In this document: positions 6,806-31,792 of the stretch, one piece after another
Numbering within the stretch: the first letter of the stretch is position 1
Layout: every line of letters starts with the position of its first letter
Assembly (NCBI GenBank): GCA_020724845.1
Contig: DYGE01000004.1
Location: forward strand, 29,751 to 93,750
Length of the DNA: 64,000 nt
Reading direction: 5' to 3'
From: Candidatus Paceibacter sp.
GTDB lineage: Bacteria > Patescibacteriota > Minisyncoccia > UBA6257 > 02-FULL-45-10c
The notes under the pieces: model-generated
What the model was told of the DNA's origin: nothing
What the model saw: the letters and a program-made list of their open reading frames with translations, nothing else
Database searches by the model: none
Program-made: the position numbers and the translations under genes

Positions 6806-8374
6806 TCAGGGAGTTTTTCCTTTTAAAATGATTTTTTGCAGCTCGTCTAAGCTGGGACTATCAGTAGAAAACGGATTTCCATCCTCGCCGAAATAGACAT
6901 TTATACTTCTGCCTCTGTGTCCTAAAACAGCATGGTCCCACTCTAGAAGCTCGAGCTTCTCTAAAAACCGTTTGTTCTTGCGAAGCAGCCTAATAAACCT
7001 GCCTCTGCTTTTAGCTCGTGTCCCCGGAGAAGTTGTAATAGCCCTTTTAATGTCCTCTTGGCTAACCAAGCGCCTAATAGTTCCCCTCTCTTCCAGCGCT
7101 GCATATAAGCTAATTCTGGGGTCGGCGCTGATGTTGTGGTAATCCCAGTCAATTCTCCAAGCCCGGTTATCTTCTAATCCGAATCCAAACTTTTTCATTC
7201 CCTTCTCCAAAAGATGCCGTTTGGTAACCCAATCCAGTTCGCCTACCAGCTTATCAAGCGCCTTGGCCTCCAGCAGCTCCAAAACCCTCTCCCATTCTTC
7301 CAGGCACCTCTTTTCTTCCGGAGACAAAGGGCGGAGCTGCTTGGCGGCATTAAGAAAGATGCGGTTGTAGCGAATAATGTTGGCCCGGGAAGTTCTGGTC
7401 CTCAAGCGATAATTCAAGTCAATGCCAAAGTTTAATTTGTGCAATTCTTTGACTGGATCTTCCAGTCTTAACGGAGCCGGCAAATTCCATCCTTCCTCTC
7501 CCAGCCGCAAAACAAGATGCGTTATAGTATCTACCAGCCAAGTCTGCAGCTCGCAACGAGTAGCGTCCCGAGACATCAAATGCAAGCGCCCAAGTGTTAA
7601 AGAGCTGTCGGCGCGATCTTCATTTTTGTAATCAATCAGAGGCCGCAGATTATCTCCGTCGGACATCTCTTTCACTAGAACATGCGGAGCCCGCTGGGAA
7701 AAATTAAAGACAAAACCGCCGTTTCTTTTTCTCGCCACATGCCCATTTCCGCTAAGAATCAAGGCTGCTGGAATAAAATTCCATAAAATATCGGAAATGC
7801 TCCTCTCCTTTGCAAGTAGATAGGAGTAATTATGGTGACATCCATAGGTAACTTCCCGCCTTAAATCAAGAACAGAATTCTGGGTATTCGTGAAGATATC
7901 CTCATCTTCGTCATCGCCGCGCCCTGGTCCCACGCTATTCTTATAAAGCTCGAATCTCCTCAATCCCCAAATCTTGGAAACTTGCTTAAGCGCTAAATTT
8001 AAAATTTGCTCCAAGGCCTTTTCCTGGGCAACGATATCAAGCGAACCAGCCAAACATTCCGCGGTATTGCTTTCTATTAACCTCCCTATATCAATGTAAA
8101 TCTTTGATCCATTGCCAAGCCACACCATCTCGGGCTTATCTTTGTTATTCAAGATCACAGAAGGAAATCGCTTGGAAATGGCGACAATAAGGCTTGAATA
8201 GATATCTCGATGCCATTCCCCAAACTGATCTCTATAATCCAGGTCAGGCACCGGGTCTATGAAAACCCCGAACTCCTGCTCCCTGCCGCACAAACGTTTC
8301 TGCACTTTTACCTCTTCAGCTATAAAAGAACATTGTAATAGTATAACAAAATACCCCGCTTTTATGCGAGGCAT
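6806..8374 (-). CDS. divergent PafA/Dop-family carboxylate-amine ligase paralog (Pup ligase-like)
   Basis: N-terminal CGREQEFG variant of the GIETEFG motif; LYKNN…GCHHNYS and LSQRA…RPLIDYKNED blocks align to Mtb PafA from memory; tandem with a close paralog. Confidence 0.7.
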   Translation of the reverse strand: MPRIKAGYFVILLQCSFIAEEVKVQKRLCGREQEFGVFIDPVPDLDYRDQFGEWHRDIYSSLIVAISKRFPSVILNNKDKPEMVWLGNGSKIYIDIGRLIESNTAECLAGSLDIVAQEKALEQILNLALKQVSKIWGLRRFELYKNSVGPGRGDDEDEDIFTNTQNSVLDLRREVTYGCHHNYSYLLAKERSISDILWNFIPAALILSGNGHVARKRNGGFVFNFSQRAPHVLVKEMSDGDNLRPLIDYKNEDRADSSLTLGRLHLMSRDATRCELQTWLVDTITHLVLRLGEEGWNLPAPLRLEDPVKELHKLNFGIDLNYRLRTRTSRANIIRYNRIFLNAAKQLRPLSPEEKRCLEEWERVLELLEAKALDKLVGELDWVTKRHLLEKGMKKFGFGLEDNRAWRIDWDYHNISADPRISLYAALEERGTIRRLVSQEDIKRAITTSPGTRAKSRGRFIRLLRKNKRFLEKLELLEWDHAVLGHRGRSINVYFGEDGNPFSTDSPSLDELQKIILKGKTP

Positions 8375-8379
8375 TATAT

Positions 8380-9906
8380 TTATAAACTTGAGATTCCCAA
8401 TTTTTTATACAATTCTTCTAGATCAGGATTTTCGGTTGAAAACGGATTGCCGCCTCCTCCGAATGGGATCACTAATGGCTTATCTGATTTTTCTAAGAGT
8501 TCTTTTCTAAGAATTACCTTTTGCCAGTCCATATCCGCCTTAGGAAAGGCGCTTCTTAATTTTTCTTCCTGCCGAAAGAGTTTCACGAACCTCCCTCGGC
8601 TCATGGCCCGGCTTTGAGGAGGCGTCAGAATGGTCTTCCTGATGTCCTCCTCGCTTACCAGGCGCCTGATAACGTCTTTCTGCTCCAGGGCGGCATAGAG
8701 GCTAATTCGAGGATCTGAGCTAATGTTGTGATAATCCCAATCCATCCTCCAGGCGCGTTTGTCTTCTAGCCCAAATCCAAATTTTTTCATCGCCTTTTCC
8801 AAAAGATGCCATTTGGTAACCCAATCCAGTTCGCCAACCAATTTCTCCAACGCGCCAGCCTCCAGCAGACTTAAGATTCTCTCCCACTCTTCCAAACACT
8901 TCTTCTCTCTGACGGAAAGCGGATTTAGCTGCTTCGCGGCATCAAGAAAGATGCGGTTATATCGGATTATGTTTAGACGGAAGCTCCCGGTATAGTCTCC
9001 GCAAAGGATCGAGTAATCAAGACCGGCCGCAAAAGAAAAGTTGACATTTCTCATTTCGCCGACCGGGTCCTGTATACTATAATTAGACGGTAGTTCCCAT
9101 CCCTCCTCCGCAAGGCGGAGGACCAGGTGAGTAACGCCATCCATCAACCAAGTCTGCAGCTCGCAACGGGTAGCGTCTCTGGAAATCAGATGCAGCCGAC
9201 TTAGTGATTCAAACCCGTCCATCAACGCCTCGTCTCTTGTATTAACTATCGGCCGATTGTTTGTGGAACTGTTATTCTCCCTGGCGACAATGTGATTAGC
9301 TCGCTGCGAAAGAAGGTAGAAAAAATTGCCGCCATACTTAAAAACATGCCCATTGCCGCTTAAAACCAAGCCGGCCGGAACAAAGCTCTCAAGAATCCGG
9401 AAGACCATACTTTGCTTGGAAGCCAAATAAGAATAATTATGGTGGCTGCCAAACGTGACTTCGTTAAAAAGATCCTTCGGACTAGCCGGCCCCACGTTAT
9501 TTTTATATAGATTCAAAGAATCTATTTTCCTAGACTCTACGGCAAGCAACAAGGCCTGGTTCAGCATCAACTCTGACGCCTTCTCTTGAAGAACTCCTTC
9601 TATAGAACATGGGCGAGACTCGGCATTAGCCGCTTCTAACAAGCTTTGGTCCTTATAAAATACGGCCCCATTCGCAGTCCAAAGACGCCCGTTTACGGAC
9701 CTAATGGCCGGAAAGTTATAGCTCAAGCACCGAAGAATTTCATCAATAATCCTGCCCCTCCAAATAGCATGATCGGCGGCTATCATCTGGTCCGGCGATT
9801 CCCCGGTTATGATTTGAGGTGAATAAATCTTTGGAGGCCGCCAACCAGGCTTAACTACCATGGCGAACTCCTGCTCCCTGCCGCAAAGCCGTTCTTGCAT
9901 TTCCAT
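8380..9906 (-). CDS. divergent PafA/Dop-family carboxylate-amine ligase paralog (Pup ligase-like)
   Basis: MQERLCGREQEFAM…, NGAVFYKD…, LYKNN…GSHHNYSYL, LSQRANH, RPIVNTRDE blocks; high similarity to the 6806..8374 product. Confidence 0.7.
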   Translation of the reverse strand: MEMQERLCGREQEFAMVVKPGWRPPKIYSPQIITGESPDQMIAADHAIWRGRIIDEILRCLSYNFPAIRSVNGRLWTANGAVFYKDQSLLEAANAESRPCSIEGVLQEKASELMLNQALLLAVESRKIDSLNLYKNNVGPASPKDLFNEVTFGSHHNYSYLASKQSMVFRILESFVPAGLVLSGNGHVFKYGGNFFYLLSQRANHIVARENNSSTNNRPIVNTRDEALMDGFESLSRLHLISRDATRCELQTWLMDGVTHLVLRLAEEGWELPSNYSIQDPVGEMRNVNFSFAAGLDYSILCGDYTGSFRLNIIRYNRIFLDAAKQLNPLSVREKKCLEEWERILSLLEAGALEKLVGELDWVTKWHLLEKAMKKFGFGLEDKRAWRMDWDYHNISSDPRISLYAALEQKDVIRRLVSEEDIRKTILTPPQSRAMSRGRFVKLFRQEEKLRSAFPKADMDWQKVILRKELLEKSDKPLVIPFGGGGNPFSTENPDLEELYKKLGISSL

Positions 9907-9960
9907 TATTCAAATGACAAACAAGCTAGTATCTACTATATGGTTATTCTTGGCAATTGG

Positions 9961-9990
9961 CAAATACAAAACCGCCTGAATGGCGGTTAT
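9961..9990 (-). terminator. intrinsic terminator / attenuator immediately after pup
   Basis: On the minus strand, hairpin AACCGCC-ATTCA-GGCGGTT followed by TTTTGTATTT. Confidence 0.5.
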
Positions 9991-10184
9991 TACTCACCCC
10001 CTTGCTGGGGAACGTCTTCGGGTTCCAGATCCTTTCCTACGCCGGCGTCGTTATAAAAATCTTCCAACACATCTTCAACGCCTTCAACATCTTGCTCTTC
10101 CTGCTCCTCTTCTTCCTGCTCTTCCTCTTCCTTCTTTTTCTTTTTATTCTTTTTCTTTTTCTTTACTTTATCCTGCTCGGACAT
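9990..10184 (-). CDS. pup: prokaryotic ubiquitin-like protein Pup (C-terminal GGE)
   Basis: 64 aa, highly charged and disordered; C-terminus …EDVPQQGGE; sits between the Dop-like and PafA-like genes as in canonical dop-pup synteny; poly-K/poly-E N-terminus. Confidence 0.7.
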   Translation of the reverse strand: MSEQDKVKKKKKNKKKKKEEEEQEEEEQEEQDVEGVEDVLEDFYNDAGVGKDLEPEDVPQQGGE

Positions 10185-10198
10185 CCAAACCTCAACTC

Positions 10199-11662
10199 TT
10201 AGCGATCTAATTCCGATAATATCATATCCGCCCCCAGTTTATCAAGCGACGGCTCATCAAAATCCAGATGTATCATTCTGTCGCCGCTTCTCATATAAGC
10301 AGAACCCCAATTCATATGCACGATTCCGGATCCAAATCTTTTGATAATTTCAGAACGCAGATAAGCCTTGGTGTCGTTCGGCGGATTAGATGTGGCCAAC
10401 TTGATAGAATCACTATCCAGCAGTTTGGCGCCTCTTACTTTTTCGGATAATTTCAAATGCGGATTGCGAGGATAAATCTCTCGAAAAGAACGGAGGTTCT
10501 TTTTAGCTTCGGCTGGACGGCTCTCCATTATTTTCCAGGCCGTTGCCCAGTCCAACCTGCCAAAGGCCAGAGCGGGATCCTTCTCTAAAATCTCTAATAA
10601 TTCTTCTGCTCGCTTTACGGCAAGCAAGTGCTGATCCGTCATCGGAGTGCCAGAAAGATAATCTCTGGCCTTCGATAAATAGTACCTAAGTATTTCCATG
10701 CCAGTCAGTTTTTTGCCATTTTCCATCCGAATCCGATCGCGGAATTTTAAATCGCGTGAAACCTTAATCATGGCTTCAACGGGCTTCCAAGGCATCATAT
10801 TCCTAGAAAGGAATTTATCCTCTATCATCGCTAGCACGACCTGGGTCAGGGCGACTTTCAAAAAAATAGCTTCTTCGCACAAAAGCGCGTCAGTGGAAAT
10901 ATCATGTAAGCGATAATATTTCCCAAAATCAGCATGGGGCTCGTCTCTAAGATTGAAAATAGGCCGTTCGCTGGTTGTGTTATATCCCACCAGATTTTCA
11001 AAAAAATCAGCCCTTTGAGAAATCTGAAAACGGCAGCTTGGCCGCTTGTTCTCCGATCCGAACTTGCCAGCCCCGATTAGAACCATCCTCGCAATCTGAA
11101 ATGGCATATAATGCCTGACGAGATAGGCGTGTCGGTCGTGTTCCACCGCGGCCCGATTAAGAAGCATGTTCAGGTGACAGCCATAACTATTACCCAACCC
11201 GTCGCTGTTATTCTTGTGCAAATAAAGAAGATATCCTTCCCGATCTTTTTGGCGGTAAAATAAATCCGCAGCGGCAAGCATAACTAGCTCGCTTGCCTTG
11301 TCATGGGCGACTAAATCCAGCGGCTTGAGGCATTCGGGAGTAGAATATTCCGGATGAGCGACATCCAGATAAAACCTGGCCCCATTATCCAAGAAGCCGT
11401 CGGCTGAATTGCCAGAGCGCTCAATAATGCCGCGATGCAGCTTCTCTATAAGAGTCTCTTCTTCATCATCGTCCGGCGGCCTTCTCGCCTCCCGGGACCT
11501 ATCGTAACGAGCGGCTTTCTGAAGGTTTAAGTAATCTCTTACAAAAGCATGAGAAAGCTCCGAATAAGCGCCTAAATCCACCGGATTCAATTCACTTCCA
11601 GATTTCCGAAGAATAGCAAAACCGAATTCGTTTTCTATTCCACAAACCTTAGGAACAGCCAT
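10199..11662 (-). CDS. dop: Dop/PafA-family enzyme, Dop-like (depupylase/deamidase candidate)
   Basis: VCGIENEFG, NGARFYLDVAHPEYSTPEC, HKNNSDGLGNSYGCHLN, IGAGKFG, ISQRADF, RPIFNLRDEPHAD match PafA/Dop; ~70-aa acidic insertion after the N-terminal motif resembles the Dop loop. Confidence 0.8.
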   Translation of the reverse strand: MAVPKVCGIENEFGFAILRKSGSELNPVDLGAYSELSHAFVRDYLNLQKAARYDRSREARRPPDDDEEETLIEKLHRGIIERSGNSADGFLDNGARFYLDVAHPEYSTPECLKPLDLVAHDKASELVMLAAADLFYRQKDREGYLLYLHKNNSDGLGNSYGCHLNMLLNRAAVEHDRHAYLVRHYMPFQIARMVLIGAGKFGSENKRPSCRFQISQRADFFENLVGYNTTSERPIFNLRDEPHADFGKYYRLHDISTDALLCEEAIFLKVALTQVVLAMIEDKFLSRNMMPWKPVEAMIKVSRDLKFRDRIRMENGKKLTGMEILRYYLSKARDYLSGTPMTDQHLLAVKRAEELLEILEKDPALAFGRLDWATAWKIMESRPAEAKKNLRSFREIYPRNPHLKLSEKVRGAKLLDSDSIKLATSNPPNDTKAYLRSEIIKRFGSGIVHMNWGSAYMRSGDRMIHLDFDEPSLDKLGADMILSELDR

Positions 11663-11753
11663 TTCATCTCCAAATAGCTGTCAAAGAGCAATTTAGTGTA
11701 TCTTAAAAGAATTAATCAATAATTACAAGAAAGCTTTAGAAGCCCAAAGCGGT

Positions 11754-11785
11754 GAATAAAAAATCTGCCGCTATGCGGCAGACTC
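11754..11785 (-). terminator. intrinsic terminator after the ARC/Mpa gene
   Basis: On the minus strand, hairpin TCTGCCGC-ATA-GCGGCAGA followed by TTTTTTATT. Confidence 0.6.
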
Positions 11786-11794
11786 AAACATAAT

Positions 11795-13642
11795 TTAATC
11801 CTCTTCTTTCGGCTTAAACCCGAGCGGCTTCTCCTTCACTTTTAGGAAACTATTCTTCAACCGTCGCATCTCCTCATCCACGGCCCGGAAAAAATCTTTC
11901 TTCATAACTTCTTCCTTCGCATTTGAAGGATTCTCTTCCCTTAAACGATTATACCTCTCCAACGCAATAAGCCTGGCGTTTTCTACAATACTGGCCAAAA
12001 TCGCTCCGGAGAGCCAATCCTTCAAATAGACATCCTCTTCGCCCTTTTGAGTAATGGCTCTAAACCTATTATCAACAATTGTGCTATCCGGCTCTCCATC
12101 CTCAAAATGCATTCTCACAGGAGAACCGGTATAAAGAATGCGATTAGTGATCATATCAATAATATGATTACGGACATTCTCTGGATCCTTCTTAAGCTCA
12201 ACTTTCTGTTCTTCTCCGCTGCCAAAATGGTCAATGTAAGTATAGGTATCTTGTTCAAAGTACTTGCTGGCAAATGGCATATCGGCAGTCAGATGAATCC
12301 TAAGGATTTCCTTGATATCCTTTTCAGACCGCGGCCTTGGGACTTCAACGTCAACACCTAGGCGCCCAGGGCGCAAGATCGCCTTGTCAATCAAATCTTT
12401 GCGGTTGGTAGCGCCAATAACTAGGACATTTCCGAGCGGATCCATCCCTTGCAGAATCGCGTTAAACTGCCCGATGTCAGTGCCCATCCAGGGCTCATGA
12501 GAAGCAGTGTCTCTGCTTCGCAGTAAAGAATCAATCTCATCAATAAAGACAATAACTAGCCACCCCTGACTGGCTAGCTCCTTAGCGCGAGCGAAAATCT
12601 CTCTCATCTTTCTGGCGGTTTCTCCAACAAACTTATCGGTCAAATCCGCTCCCGCAAACTGCATGAATCCGACTTTCAACCCCCTGGATTTGCCAACGTC
12701 AGCGGCAATAACCTGCGCAAGCAGAGTTTTGCCGCAACCTTCAGGACCGTGGAGAATAAGGCCCTTCGGCGGATTTTTGCCCTTGAATTTAGCGTATACC
12801 TCCGGAATCTTGAAAGGCAGTAAGCTTCGCTTAATCTTTTTAACCGCCCTGGAAAGTCCTCCGACATGAGACCAATCCTTGTCTCTGATCTCCTCAATGT
12901 CAAAAAATCTTTCCGCGCCCTCCACCTTCGGAAGAAGCTTTAGCAAAAGACCATTATAGTTAAGCAGATAATCGCCGTCCTTAAGCTTCTGGTCTTTGAG
13001 TTCCGGGCTGAGGAAGCACTGAAAGAGCGAGCCTCCTTCACCGCTGACCAAGGCCTCTTCGTCATTCAACTTTTCTTTGAAGCTGACCACCGAGCCTCGG
13101 AAATGGTGTTTTTTAGTAAGGCCAACTATATTTCCGGTTTCCGGATCTAAGAGCACCTCCCAACCGCACTTCAAATCTGCAGCAGATAACCCCGGCATGG
13201 CCAAATGCACTTTGCGCATTTCATCGTCAACCAGAATATCAACCTCATCAGCATCACCTCCAGGATGCGGCCGAATAAAAACTCCATACTTGCTGGCGGC
13301 GCCCTGCCTGCTCTTTTCCGCCTGCTCATGCTGTTTGGCAATCTTCGTTAATCGCTCCAAGGCCTTGGCGTACGCCTTATTCGCCCTATCCAGCTTCTGG
13401 CCGCGCTCCTCGCATTCCTTAATCCGCCTCCTAAGAGCTCGTATTATAATCTTGGAATTCTCTCTATCGGTCTCCAACTTTCTAAGCAAGTCCTCCAGGT
13501 CTTTATCGTCGCCATCTCCGGATTTCTTTCTCTTTTTACCGCTTAAAAATAACTCCAACAATTCGTCCAAGAAGTCTTTCGGGTCATTCTCTTGGTTCAT
13601 TTTCAATTTGCAAGGTTCAAGATTTTGAATAAAATATAGCAT
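11795..13642 (-). CDS. arc: ARC/Mpa-type AAA+ ATPase (proteasome-associated ATPase homolog)
   Basis: N-terminal coiled coil, OB-like interdomain (KYGVFIRP…), one AAA module (GPEGCGKTLLA…, VIVFIDEIDS); no C-terminal GQYL/HbYX; likely true start is MNQEN at 13600. Confidence 0.85.
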   Translation of the reverse strand: MLYFIQNLEPCKLKMNQENDPKDFLDELLELFLSGKKRKKSGDGDDKDLEDLLRKLETDRENSKIIIRALRRRIKECEERGQKLDRANKAYAKALERLTKIAKQHEQAEKSRQGAASKYGVFIRPHPGGDADEVDILVDDEMRKVHLAMPGLSAADLKCGWEVLLDPETGNIVGLTKKHHFRGSVVSFKEKLNDEEALVSGEGGSLFQCFLSPELKDQKLKDGDYLLNYNGLLLKLLPKVEGAERFFDIEEIRDKDWSHVGGLSRAVKKIKRSLLPFKIPEVYAKFKGKNPPKGLILHGPEGCGKTLLAQVIAADVGKSRGLKVGFMQFAGADLTDKFVGETARKMREIFARAKELASQGWLVIVFIDEIDSLLRSRDTASHEPWMGTDIGQFNAILQGMDPLGNVLVIGATNRKDLIDKAILRPGRLGVDVEVPRPRSEKDIKEILRIHLTADMPFASKYFEQDTYTYIDHFGSGEEQKVELKKDPENVRNHIIDMITNRILYTGSPVRMHFEDGEPDSTIVDNRFRAITQKGEEDVYLKDWLSGAILASIVENARLIALERYNRLREENPSNAKEEVMKKDFFRAVDEEMRRLKNSFLKVKEKPLGFKPKEED

Positions 13643-14824: not shown

Positions 14825-15025
14825 TTATCGCCTGGTAAAAGGAAGCAATCCTAAATATCGAGAACGCTTTATGGCCCGAGCTAAGTTCCGCTGGTGCTTG
14901 GCGCAAGTGCCGGAAAATTTGGGGTCAATAATTTTTGCCTGACCGGAAATGAACTTCTTAAGAAGCTCTGAATCTTTGTAATCAATCTCGTTTAGGTTCT
15001 GTGAGCAAAAATAGCACTGTTTCAT
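14825..15025 (-). CDS. rpsR: 30S ribosomal protein S18
   Basis: CYFCSQN…RYLGLLPF typical bS18; downstream of ssb. Confidence 0.85.
   Translation of the reverse strand: MKQCYFCSQNLNEIDYKDSELLKKFISGQAKIIDPKFSGTCAKHQRNLARAIKRSRYLGLLPFTRR

Positions 15026-28603: not shown

Positions 28604-31792
<3,189 letters not shown>

Follow-up and report, generated by a model that had tools for sequence, protein, structure and literature searches.

Gene Cluster

The stretch of DNA described here, 64,000 nucleotides of contig DYGE01000004.1 from Candidatus Paceibacter sp. (hereafter the window), contains a 64-amino-acid open reading frame (ORF) on the minus strand. This ORF lies within a cluster of five genes, about 7.5 kb. 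Its product, here called the tag, ends in GGE. The tag is probably the Pup-type modifier of an apparently proteasome-independent, pupylation-like system that these five genes encode in a Patescibacteria (candidate phyla radiation (CPR), Parcubacteria-group) bacterium. By sequence comparison, the neighbors of the tag ORF are homologs of PafA, Dop, and Mpa. The five genes and the features of the tag ORF are as follows.

11795..13600, minus strand: Mpa/ARC-like AAA ATPase, 601 amino acids; coiled coil and OB region at the N-terminus (TIGR03689 and Mpa alignment)
10199..11662, minus strand: Dop-type paralog 1, 487 amino acids (Pfam Pup_ligase, E 8e-101; best NCBIfam model, Dop)
10190..10193, minus strand: Shine-Dalgarno sequence GAGG, 5 nucleotides 5' of the tag ATG (read from the sequence)
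9990..10184, minus strand: Pup-like gene, 64 amino acids, ending ...QQGGE (ORF and translation; stop TAA at 9990-9992, second TAA at 9987-9989)
10090..10169, minus strand: purine-rich coding tract for the K-block (KKKKKNKKKKK) and E/Q-block of the tag (composition)
8380..9900, minus strand: PafA-like paralog 2, 506 amino acids from the ATG at 9900 (Pup_ligase family; start MQERLCGREQEF, with GxExE)
6806..8305, minus strand: PafA-like paralog 3, 499 amino acids from the GTG at 8305 (Pup_ligase family)

The gene order, all on the minus strand, is rpoC, S6, SSB, a PAP2 gene, the AAA ATPase, the Dop-type gene, the small ORF, the two PafA-like genes, a tRNA, and ParB. Flanked by rpoC-S6-SSB and ParB, the cluster lies in a core region of the chromosome. 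The segment from the AAA ATPase through the Dop-type gene, the small ORF, and both PafA-like genes to ParB is kept in this order wherever related contigs cover it. The closest homologs of the Dop-type gene product are proteins from metagenome-assembled genomes (MAGs) with 47-59% identity, one of them from Candidatus Harrisonbacteria (Parcubacteria group). The next-best matches are actinobacterial Dop proteins with 37-41% identity. A contig profile scan with the Dop-type alignment was dominated by actinobacterial Dop and contained no close relative of the clade among the matches listed.

Tag ORF

The tag ORF is a real, conserved gene. Its translation is MSEQDKVKKKKKNKKKKKEEEEQEEEEQEEQDVEGVEDVLEDFYNDAGVGKDLEPEDVPQQGGE, followed by the tandem stops TAA TAA. 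An earlier note on this DNA had reported a Pup-like ORF within 9961-10184; the ORF is located at exactly 9990..10184 of the minus strand and has the sequence quoted there. The ORF begins 14 nucleotides after the stop of the Dop-type gene; across the related loci, the gap between the Dop-type gene and the small ORF is 5-18 nucleotides.

The identical tag protein is encoded in three independent assemblies. An ORF of 60-71 amino acids occupies the same slot at eight distinct syntenic loci from Patescibacteria-type metagenomes. One of these is Candidatus Harrisonbacteria, in which the tag copy carries the NCBI name "hypothetical protein". Because of the three identical assemblies and the homologous ORF in the same slot of eight loci, the tag ORF was counted as more than a chance occurrence, and the frame has been kept in related genomes. 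In a leave-one-out test with the family profile, the window ORF scores 27.0 bits, and its shuffles score -7.2 ± 3.1 (about 11 standard deviations below the ORF). A direct search of 5.8 billion proteins with the single ORF matched only itself; the word index used in this search fails on low-complexity sequence.

The charged half of the tag is encoded by an unusual tract. The 80 nucleotides at 10090..10169 are 93.75% pyrimidine on the plus strand, in agreement with the polypyrimidine run of about 80 nucleotides described previously, and the longest perfect run is 27 nucleotides. Only one other 80-nucleotide stretch in the 64-kb window is this biased toward pyrimidine or purine. The codons of the K-block alternate between AAA and AAG. 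Slippery poly-A tracts were considered for this block and rejected, as the A runs never exceed 5. Two ORFs on the plus strand, antisense to the tag (9957..10202 and 9980..10210), were likewise rejected as compositional by-products of the purine-rich coding strand.

A 31-amino-acid, all-acidic mini-ORF (MDEEKDLGTEGEEEEMEEEAEEEGEGEEESE, read by eye) is located at 39939..40034 on the minus strand and is followed by a long hairpin and a T-run. It sits on the window's only other 80-nucleotide stretch of at least 90% pyrimidine or purine.

Tag Family

The tag family was defined as 18 distinct small ORFs, 57-71 amino acids in length, collected from the syntenic loci and from profile searches. A HMMER scan of 1.84 billion cluster representatives gave only 12 matches below E = 0.001, and the family was therefore judged to be small. 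The reference for comparison consisted of 64 distinct actinobacterial Pups from the loci found with the Dop-type query, among the matches listed. The same actinobacterial loci supplied the Dop, PafA, Mpa, and PrcAB reference sequences.

The layout of a K-block, a D/E-block, and a short helix is present in all 18 members. The family start is M-x-E-Q. The K/R block contains 6-11 of these residues in 12, and the D/E block contains 9-12 in 12. The charged blocks are followed by a short amphipathic acidic stretch, D-D-I-G-D-I-L-D-D-L, and then by a linker containing proline. The earlier note had called the charged N-terminus far more extreme than that of known Pups. It does exceed all 64 actinobacterial Pups, but it is a trait of the whole clade and is not peculiar to this gene.

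The consensus of the family tail is [FY][RK]Q[KR][SPG]G[EQ]. The terminal residue is E in nine members and Q in nine, with nothing else present; an example of a Q-ended ortholog is P0142. In the 64 actinobacterial Pups, it is E in 39 and Q in 25. The Q at position -4 and the G at -1 are invariant in both sets. Position -6 is aromatic in 15 of the 18 family members and in all 64 actinobacterial Pups. At -3, 17 of the 18 family members have K or R, and all 64 actinobacterial Pups have K.

The window copy is the outlier of the family. Its tail is V-P-Q-Q-G-G-E, and no other of the 18 members has V at -6, P at -5, and Q at -3. It retains the Q at -4, the G at -2 and -1, and the terminal E. Over its full length, the window tag is 52% identical to P0144, which ends in ...GVGKVPEEFRQKGGE (canonical FRQKGGE). 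An AlphaFold2 monomer model of the window tag consists of a helix at residues 3-33 (the charged blocks, where the confidence is doubtful), a helix at residues 36-46, and a coil at residues 47-64.

A 74-amino-acid Pup-like ORF with a K/R-rich N-terminus was observed after a Dop homolog in a Blastocatellaceae MAG (locus L081, 7778..8002). It ends in ...RENIQTSGE, a non-canonical tail that does not match QKGG[EQ].

Relation to Pup

The architecture and C-terminal logic of the tag resemble those of Pup. When the tag family was aligned with the actinobacterial Pups using hhalign, the probability was 92% with an E-value of 5.5e-7 and a score of 35.3, and the 30 C-terminal columns were in register. 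The score with the window sequence removed was 30.9. As controls, 200 column shuffles scored 8.6 ± 1.7 with a maximum of 13.4, and the reversed alignment scored 19.4.

Iyer et al. (2008) defined Pup as a protein of 50-90 amino acids with a G[EQ] end and an adjacent PafA gene (PMC2588565). The window ORF has all three features, with 64 amino acids, a GGE end, and Pup_ligase-family genes on both sides. Genes of this family flank the small ORF in the window and in all related loci that cover it. Because of the profile-profile match, the conserved tail positions, and this definition, the tag family is filed here as a divergent Pup-type modifier, which is most likely what it is. The central proposal of the earlier note, a Pup-type modifier with a ligation-ready terminal Glu, thus gains support from synteny, family-wide conservation, an end restricted to E or Q, and the profile-profile match.

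PafA/Dop-Family Enzymes

A loop before strand beta2, the Dop-loop, is present in all Dop and absent from all PafA and, together with the alpha-loop, discriminates between the two (PMC8599861). Paralog 1 aligns to residues 5-456 of the A. cellulolyticus Dop crystal sequence, through the Dop-loop. The alignment of PafA with paralog 1 begins only at residue 71, after the loop. The conserved Trp of the Dop-loop is Tyr in paralog 1, and the alpha-loop is of the Dop type (QRADFFExxVGxxTT).

The true N-terminus of paralogs 2 and 3 is M-Q-x-R-L-C-G-R-E-Q-E-F, which includes GxExE and is omitted by some gene callers. The later start that gene callers assign to paralog 2 (493 amino acids) would drop this motif. 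Both paralogs contain GREQEF, NG..Y.D, and the PafA-like alpha-loop QRA[NP]H[IV] where the Dop-type protein has QRADFFE. They are about equally distant from Dop and PafA, and they have an approximately 25-residue insertion of their own before beta2. Their scores against the PafA and Dop models are likewise about the same. The actinobacterial HPEYxTPE is replaced by LLEAANAE and LIESNTAE in the two PafA-like paralogs. GxExE and the Asp of the catalytic strand are kept in all three paralogs.

Paralogs 2 and 3 of the window form a mosaic when compared with each other. Their identity is 31-41% in the N-terminal part and 68-82% in columns 250-450. In locus L084, about 150 columns of the two paralogs (8802..10268 and 10366..11793) are 100% identical. 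This mosaicism suggests gene conversion between the copies or, in L084, assembly collapse.

The putative depupylase/deamidase is upstream of the tag gene, and the putative ligase or ligases are downstream. The adjacent genes had previously been described as ligases. Genes of the PafA/Dop family do adjoin the tag ORF, but the gene directly upstream is of the Dop type and is not a ligase.

ATPase and Proteasome Genes

The ATPase aligns to residues 28-443 of Mycobacterium tuberculosis Mpa, beginning with the coiled coil and continuing through the AAA module. Its score against TIGR03689 is 263 bits, below the cut-off of 504.75. It ends in ...KPLGFKPKEED and is without the GQYL proteasome-docking motif. 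The C-termini of five ATPases of the clade contain P[IL]xGF followed by 1-6 residues; those of three actinobacterial ATPases are GQYL. The P[IL]xGF end (11795..11830 on the minus strand, and loci L084-L087) could be a docking motif for another partner.

When the window and eight related loci were searched by tblastn with actinobacterial PrcB and PrcA, no match was better than E = 0.03. Proteasome-less loci, for example in Corynebacterium, have pup directly before pafA and an ATPase without the docking motif (PMC3511204). The present cluster also appears to be proteasome-independent. Its outcome is probably not proteasomal degradation, because no 20S genes were found in the searched loci and the ATPase is without GQYL.

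Probable Transcription Units

Terminator- and promoter-like features of the cluster are as follows.

11761..11785, minus strand: terminator-like hairpin after the ATPase gene (terminator scan; 4 of 5 loci)
9960..9988, minus strand: intrinsic-terminator-like hairpin after the tag, with a 7-bp stem (5 G-C pairs), a 5-nucleotide loop, and a T-rich tail at 9969-9960
9935..9963, minus strand: promoter-like TTGCCA-17 nt-TATAGT for the PafA-like genes, with a -35 box that overlaps the terminator T-tail
8350..8375, minus strand: terminator-like hairpin after paralog 2 (terminator scan; 2 of 5 loci)

The hairpin at the end of the tag gene, identified by the terminator scan, is AACCGCC-ATTCA-GGCGGTT (9988..9970) followed by TTGTATTT, and it starts inside the second stop codon. 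The 51-nucleotide stretch at 9950..10000, which takes in the gene end and the spacer downstream, folds with a value of -19.1 kcal/mol (z = -2.8 relative to shuffles). All eight loci have a hairpin and T-run directly after the small ORF. The stem sequences differ among these loci, so it is the structure rather than the sequence that is conserved. A TTGnnn-(17 or 18 nt)-TATAnT site is present between the terminator and the next gene in all eight loci. In 7 of the 8, this site is within 27-51 nucleotides of the terminator, and the -35 box often overlaps the T-tail. Conservation thus extends to both the predicted terminator and the predicted promoter motifs. Paralog 3 is also followed by a terminator-like hairpin (4 of 5 loci). 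In none of five loci was a terminator found in the gap that separates the small ORF from the Dop-type gene.

A comparable promoter-like site precedes the Dop-type gene, which is likely co-transcribed with the tag gene. The simplest reading of these motifs is three or four transcription units, consisting of the ATPase, the Dop-type gene with the tag, and the ligase-like paralog 2, with or without paralog 3. It is quite possible that more tag than ligase is produced.

The earlier note had described the hairpin as an attenuator-like terminator. The hairpin and T-run are real and kept at every locus, but the promoter-like site that follows makes the structure read as an operon end. A regulated or leaky attenuator, in which partial read-through into the PafA-like genes fixes a high ratio of tag to ligase, is rather unlikely. 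The constancy of the hairpin across the eight loci would fit such a device, and termination in the window could be incomplete, given the short 7-bp stem and the interrupted T-run (TTTTGTATTT). Read-through is made unnecessary, however, by the downstream TTGnnn-17-TATAnT site (within 27-51 nucleotides in 7 of 8 loci), and the hairpins after the ATPase gene, paralog 3, and paralog 2 have the appearance of general gene punctuation. An alternative antiterminator structure or a leader was not seen either, although no search was aimed at one. Because of the promoter-like site and the similar hairpins after other genes, the hairpin looks more like an operon end followed by a new promoter than like an attenuator.

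A conserved box, CTCTTTGACAGCT, was observed in the interval that separates the promoter-like site from the Dop-type start (11670..11700, minus strand). It also occurs in L084 and L086 (~6965..6995), and the variant in L086 is CTCTTTGATAAAT. The box could be an operator or an element of the 5' untranslated region.

Proposed Mechanism

The mechanism proposed for the cluster is drawn by analogy with actinobacterial pupylation, and the conjugation chemistry, the roles of the paralogs, and the binding of the ATPase are all predicted on that basis. The tag protein, which like actinobacterial PupE already has Glu at its end, would be disordered. One or both PafA-like paralogs would phosphorylate the gamma-carboxylate of this terminal Glu with ATP and then join it to a lysine of the target. 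The Dop-type enzyme would strip the tag and, for the Gln-ended relatives, would first deamidate the Gln. The coiled coil of the Mpa/ARC-like ATPase would bind the acidic helix (approximately residues 32-46) and pull on the charged N-terminal tail. The outcome would probably be unfolding, disassembly, or regulation, as in proteasome-less corynebacteria. The Dop-type gene and the tag gene would form one unit ending at the conserved intrinsic terminator, and the PafA-like genes would restart from their own promoter. The tryptic remnant on Lys expected for the window tag is DLEPEDVPQQGGE; for relatives with K at -3, it is GGE, SGE, or PGE.

A more far-reaching form of this proposal, which is quite unlikely, is that ultra-small bacteria of a narrow Parcubacteria-group clade keep a complete, proteasome-less pupylation whose parts have diverged into a distinct type. 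The two PafA-like paralogs, which appear to exchange sequence, may form a heterodimeric ligase here. With up to 11 K/R in 12 residues, the lysine block beside the acidic block could make the tag itself the preferred acceptor, giving poly-tag chains like those of polyubiquitin. Alternatively, the charge blocks could serve as a handle for the GQYL-less ATPase. If true, either function, tag chain or ATPase handle, would add a new mode to protein tagging in bacteria.

Weighing of the Evidence

Several results weigh against the tag being a Pup-type modifier of a proteasome-independent cluster. Even at E ≤ 10, neither the window ORF nor any of 11 relatives was matched by the Pfam Pup model or TIGR03687. 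With the NCBIfam UBact model (NF033388), a single one of the 11 family members was matched, at E = 1.3, and the window ORF was not. Low-complexity noise was all that Pfam and NCBIfam returned for the full ORF, its C-terminal 33 residues, and the 11 relatives. The alignment to curated Pup profiles, a check put forward in the earlier note, therefore produced no significant match. A hidden Markov model of the 64 actinobacterial Pups scores single family members at 0-16 bits, largely through the charged N-terminus.

The window copy itself contributes to these points. It is without the family's aromatic residue at -6 and basic residues at -5 and -3. The C-terminal 32 amino acids alone score 4.3 bits with the family profile, and shuffles score up to 7.8. 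The claim that the C-terminus matches the Pup terminal helix stands at the level of the family (hhalign E 5.5e-7) and was dropped for the single window sequence, in which these 32 residues are not above shuffles. In addition, the AlphaFold2 model, in which the confidence for low-complexity sequence is doubtful, has one helix (36-46) before the tail, compared with two in bound Pup.

The enzymes also deviate. Paralog 1 scores 302.8 bits against the Dop model (TIGR03688), below the cut-off of 492.3, and paralogs 2 and 3 score 161.9 and 156.5 bits against TIGR03686, which has a cut-off of 551.3. The HENY strand motif (SYGCHENY) is HLNM in paralog 1 and HHNY in paralogs 2 and 3. Because the scores are far below the equivalog cut-offs and HENY is altered, the roles assigned to the upstream and downstream enzymes are given as predictions only. 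The absence of 20S genes covers 64 kb and eight partial loci searched by tblastn, and not a whole genome.

Some of these points would fit a small protein that is conserved yet not conjugated, such as a non-covalent cofactor, a pseudo-substrate, or a regulator, for example a charged adaptor or inhibitor. Most of the conserved recognition residues ahead of GGE are missing from the window copy, the enzymes deviate from canonical PafA and Dop in the catalytic-strand motif, and the curated Pup models do not match. Such a protein is nevertheless improbable. All 18 members end in E or Q, with an invariant G at -1 and Q at -4, a pattern that would be difficult to account for if the terminal side chain did not react. 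The Dop-type gene is in the same predicted transcription unit at all loci, and GxExE and the Asp are retained in the three paralogs.

A decaying tag gene in the window is similarly improbable; it would be a family member that is relaxed or has lost its function, with nothing but the charged N-terminus and the GGE end preserved. The V, P, and Q found at -6, -5, and -3 in this copy alone, and a C-terminal half that is not above shuffles against the family profile, would be expected of such a gene. On the other side, the ORF is intact, of family-typical length, and equipped with a Shine-Dalgarno sequence and a double stop. Three assemblies carry the identical sequence, and all four neighboring enzyme genes are intact. 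The invariant Q at -4, the invariant G at -1, and the terminal E are retained, and the full-length identity of 52% is to a protein with the canonical FRQKGGE end.

Lastly, a chance open frame in a purine-rich spacer is highly improbable: low-complexity, purine-rich DNA does keep several frames open on both strands, and the single-sequence database search matched only the query itself, but this explanation is effectively refuted by the comparative data, in which the frame, length, start context, and specific C-terminal motif are kept in eight syntenic loci, 18 distinct sequences at 27-52% identity share the C-terminal motif, and the leave-one-out score (27.0 against -7.2 ± 3.1) is about 11 standard deviations over shuffles.

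Other Features of the Window and Related Loci

A 66-amino-acid ORF between SSB and the PAP2 gene (14825..15025, minus strand) resembles ribosomal protein S18 (...RYLGLLPFTRR). It is uncalled in the JGI record of the same contig, and S18 is called at that position in L085. The 23S rRNA gene (28615..31792, minus strand) is 3178 nucleotides long compared with 2925 model positions, corresponding to about 250 nucleotides of insertions. Insertions in 23S rRNA are common in CPR bacteria. In L087 only, an inverted CCCTCACTCTT...AAGAGTGAGGGA recurs intergenically around the cluster (8700..8840 and 6820..6960) and may be a small repeat element.

Comparison with Known Systems

Pupylation is textbook knowledge for Actinobacteria and is only sporadic elsewhere. 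The actinobacterial Pup/PupE of the Corynebacterium arc-dop-pup-pafA arrangement is the same size as the window tag (about 64 amino acids in the 64 sampled, compared with 64) and occupies the same slot, directly after a dop-type gene and directly before a PafA-like gene. Both have a ...Q-x-G-G-E end, both E and Q ends occur, and an acidic helix precedes the tail. With the proteasome-less Corynebacterium loci, the cluster further shares an ATPase without the docking motif and the absence of 20S genes at the locus.

The differences from actinobacterial Pup are also clear. Actinobacterial Pup is detected by the Pfam and TIGRFAM Pup models, whereas the tag family is undetected. The actinobacterial tail is [YF][VI]QKGG[EQ], compared with [FY][RK]Q[KR][SPG]G[EQ] in the tag family, and the segment from helix 1 to the tail is shorter in the tag family and contains proline. 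The charge per 12 residues reaches 11 K/R and 12 D/E in the tag family and at most 6 and 8, respectively, in the actinobacterial sample. The cluster has two PafA-like paralogs, not one, and its host is of the Patescibacteria type.

UBact (NCBIfam NF033388) is another point of comparison, for which one NCBIfam model was used. It was described in 2017 as a Pup-like modifier in Gram-negative and candidate phyla, reportedly with Parcubacteria-group bacteria among the hosts, tails that resemble ...RQ[KR]xGE, and proteasome subunit genes between the modifier and PafA. The short Pup-like ORF recognized by synteny, the Dop/PafA homologs, the E or Q end, and the occurrence outside Actinobacteria are shared with the present cluster. 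The UBact model differs from the tag family in that it reaches only E = 1.3 in 1 of 11 members. The slot that reportedly holds proteasome genes in UBact loci is occupied here by two PafA-like genes, and the tblastn search gave no 20S genes.

In Plesiocystis and Rhodopirellula, the Pup and PafA genes are unlinked to proteasome genes, and Pup ends in G[EQ] (PMC2588565). A heterodimer of two PafA paralogs was proposed for such loci by Iyer, Burroughs and Aravind (2008; PMC2588565). The present cluster shares with them the two PafA paralogs, the G[EQ] end, and the absence of proteasome linkage. The Plesiocystis and Rhodopirellula ligases have inserted transmembrane segments and a linked membrane-protein gene (PMC2588565). 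In contrast, the enzymes of the present cluster are of the soluble type, are linked to an Mpa-like ATPase, and lie in a core chromosomal region.

Pup-like tags outside Actinobacteria were thus already known (PMC2588565; PMC7947786), and the cluster is not new in kind. A search of the available literature found nothing connecting pupylation with CPR/Patescibacteria. What is new is a sequence type unrecognized by curated models, the extreme K/E tail, and the duplicated, apparently recombining PafA-like gene. The core chromosomal location in small genomes, with no 20S genes found in the window or related loci, is new as well.

Patescibacteria-type organisms have small genomes and have usually shed non-essential pathways. 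That about 7.5 kb are retained without proteasome genes having been found points to a proteasome-independent role in protein tagging. Because the Pfam, TIGRFAM, and NCBIfam models do not see the tag, surveys undercount the system; a family model could be built from the alignment of the 18 sequences. Concrete, testable hypotheses follow from the extreme K-block/E-block tail and from the duplicated and apparently recombining ligase-like genes.

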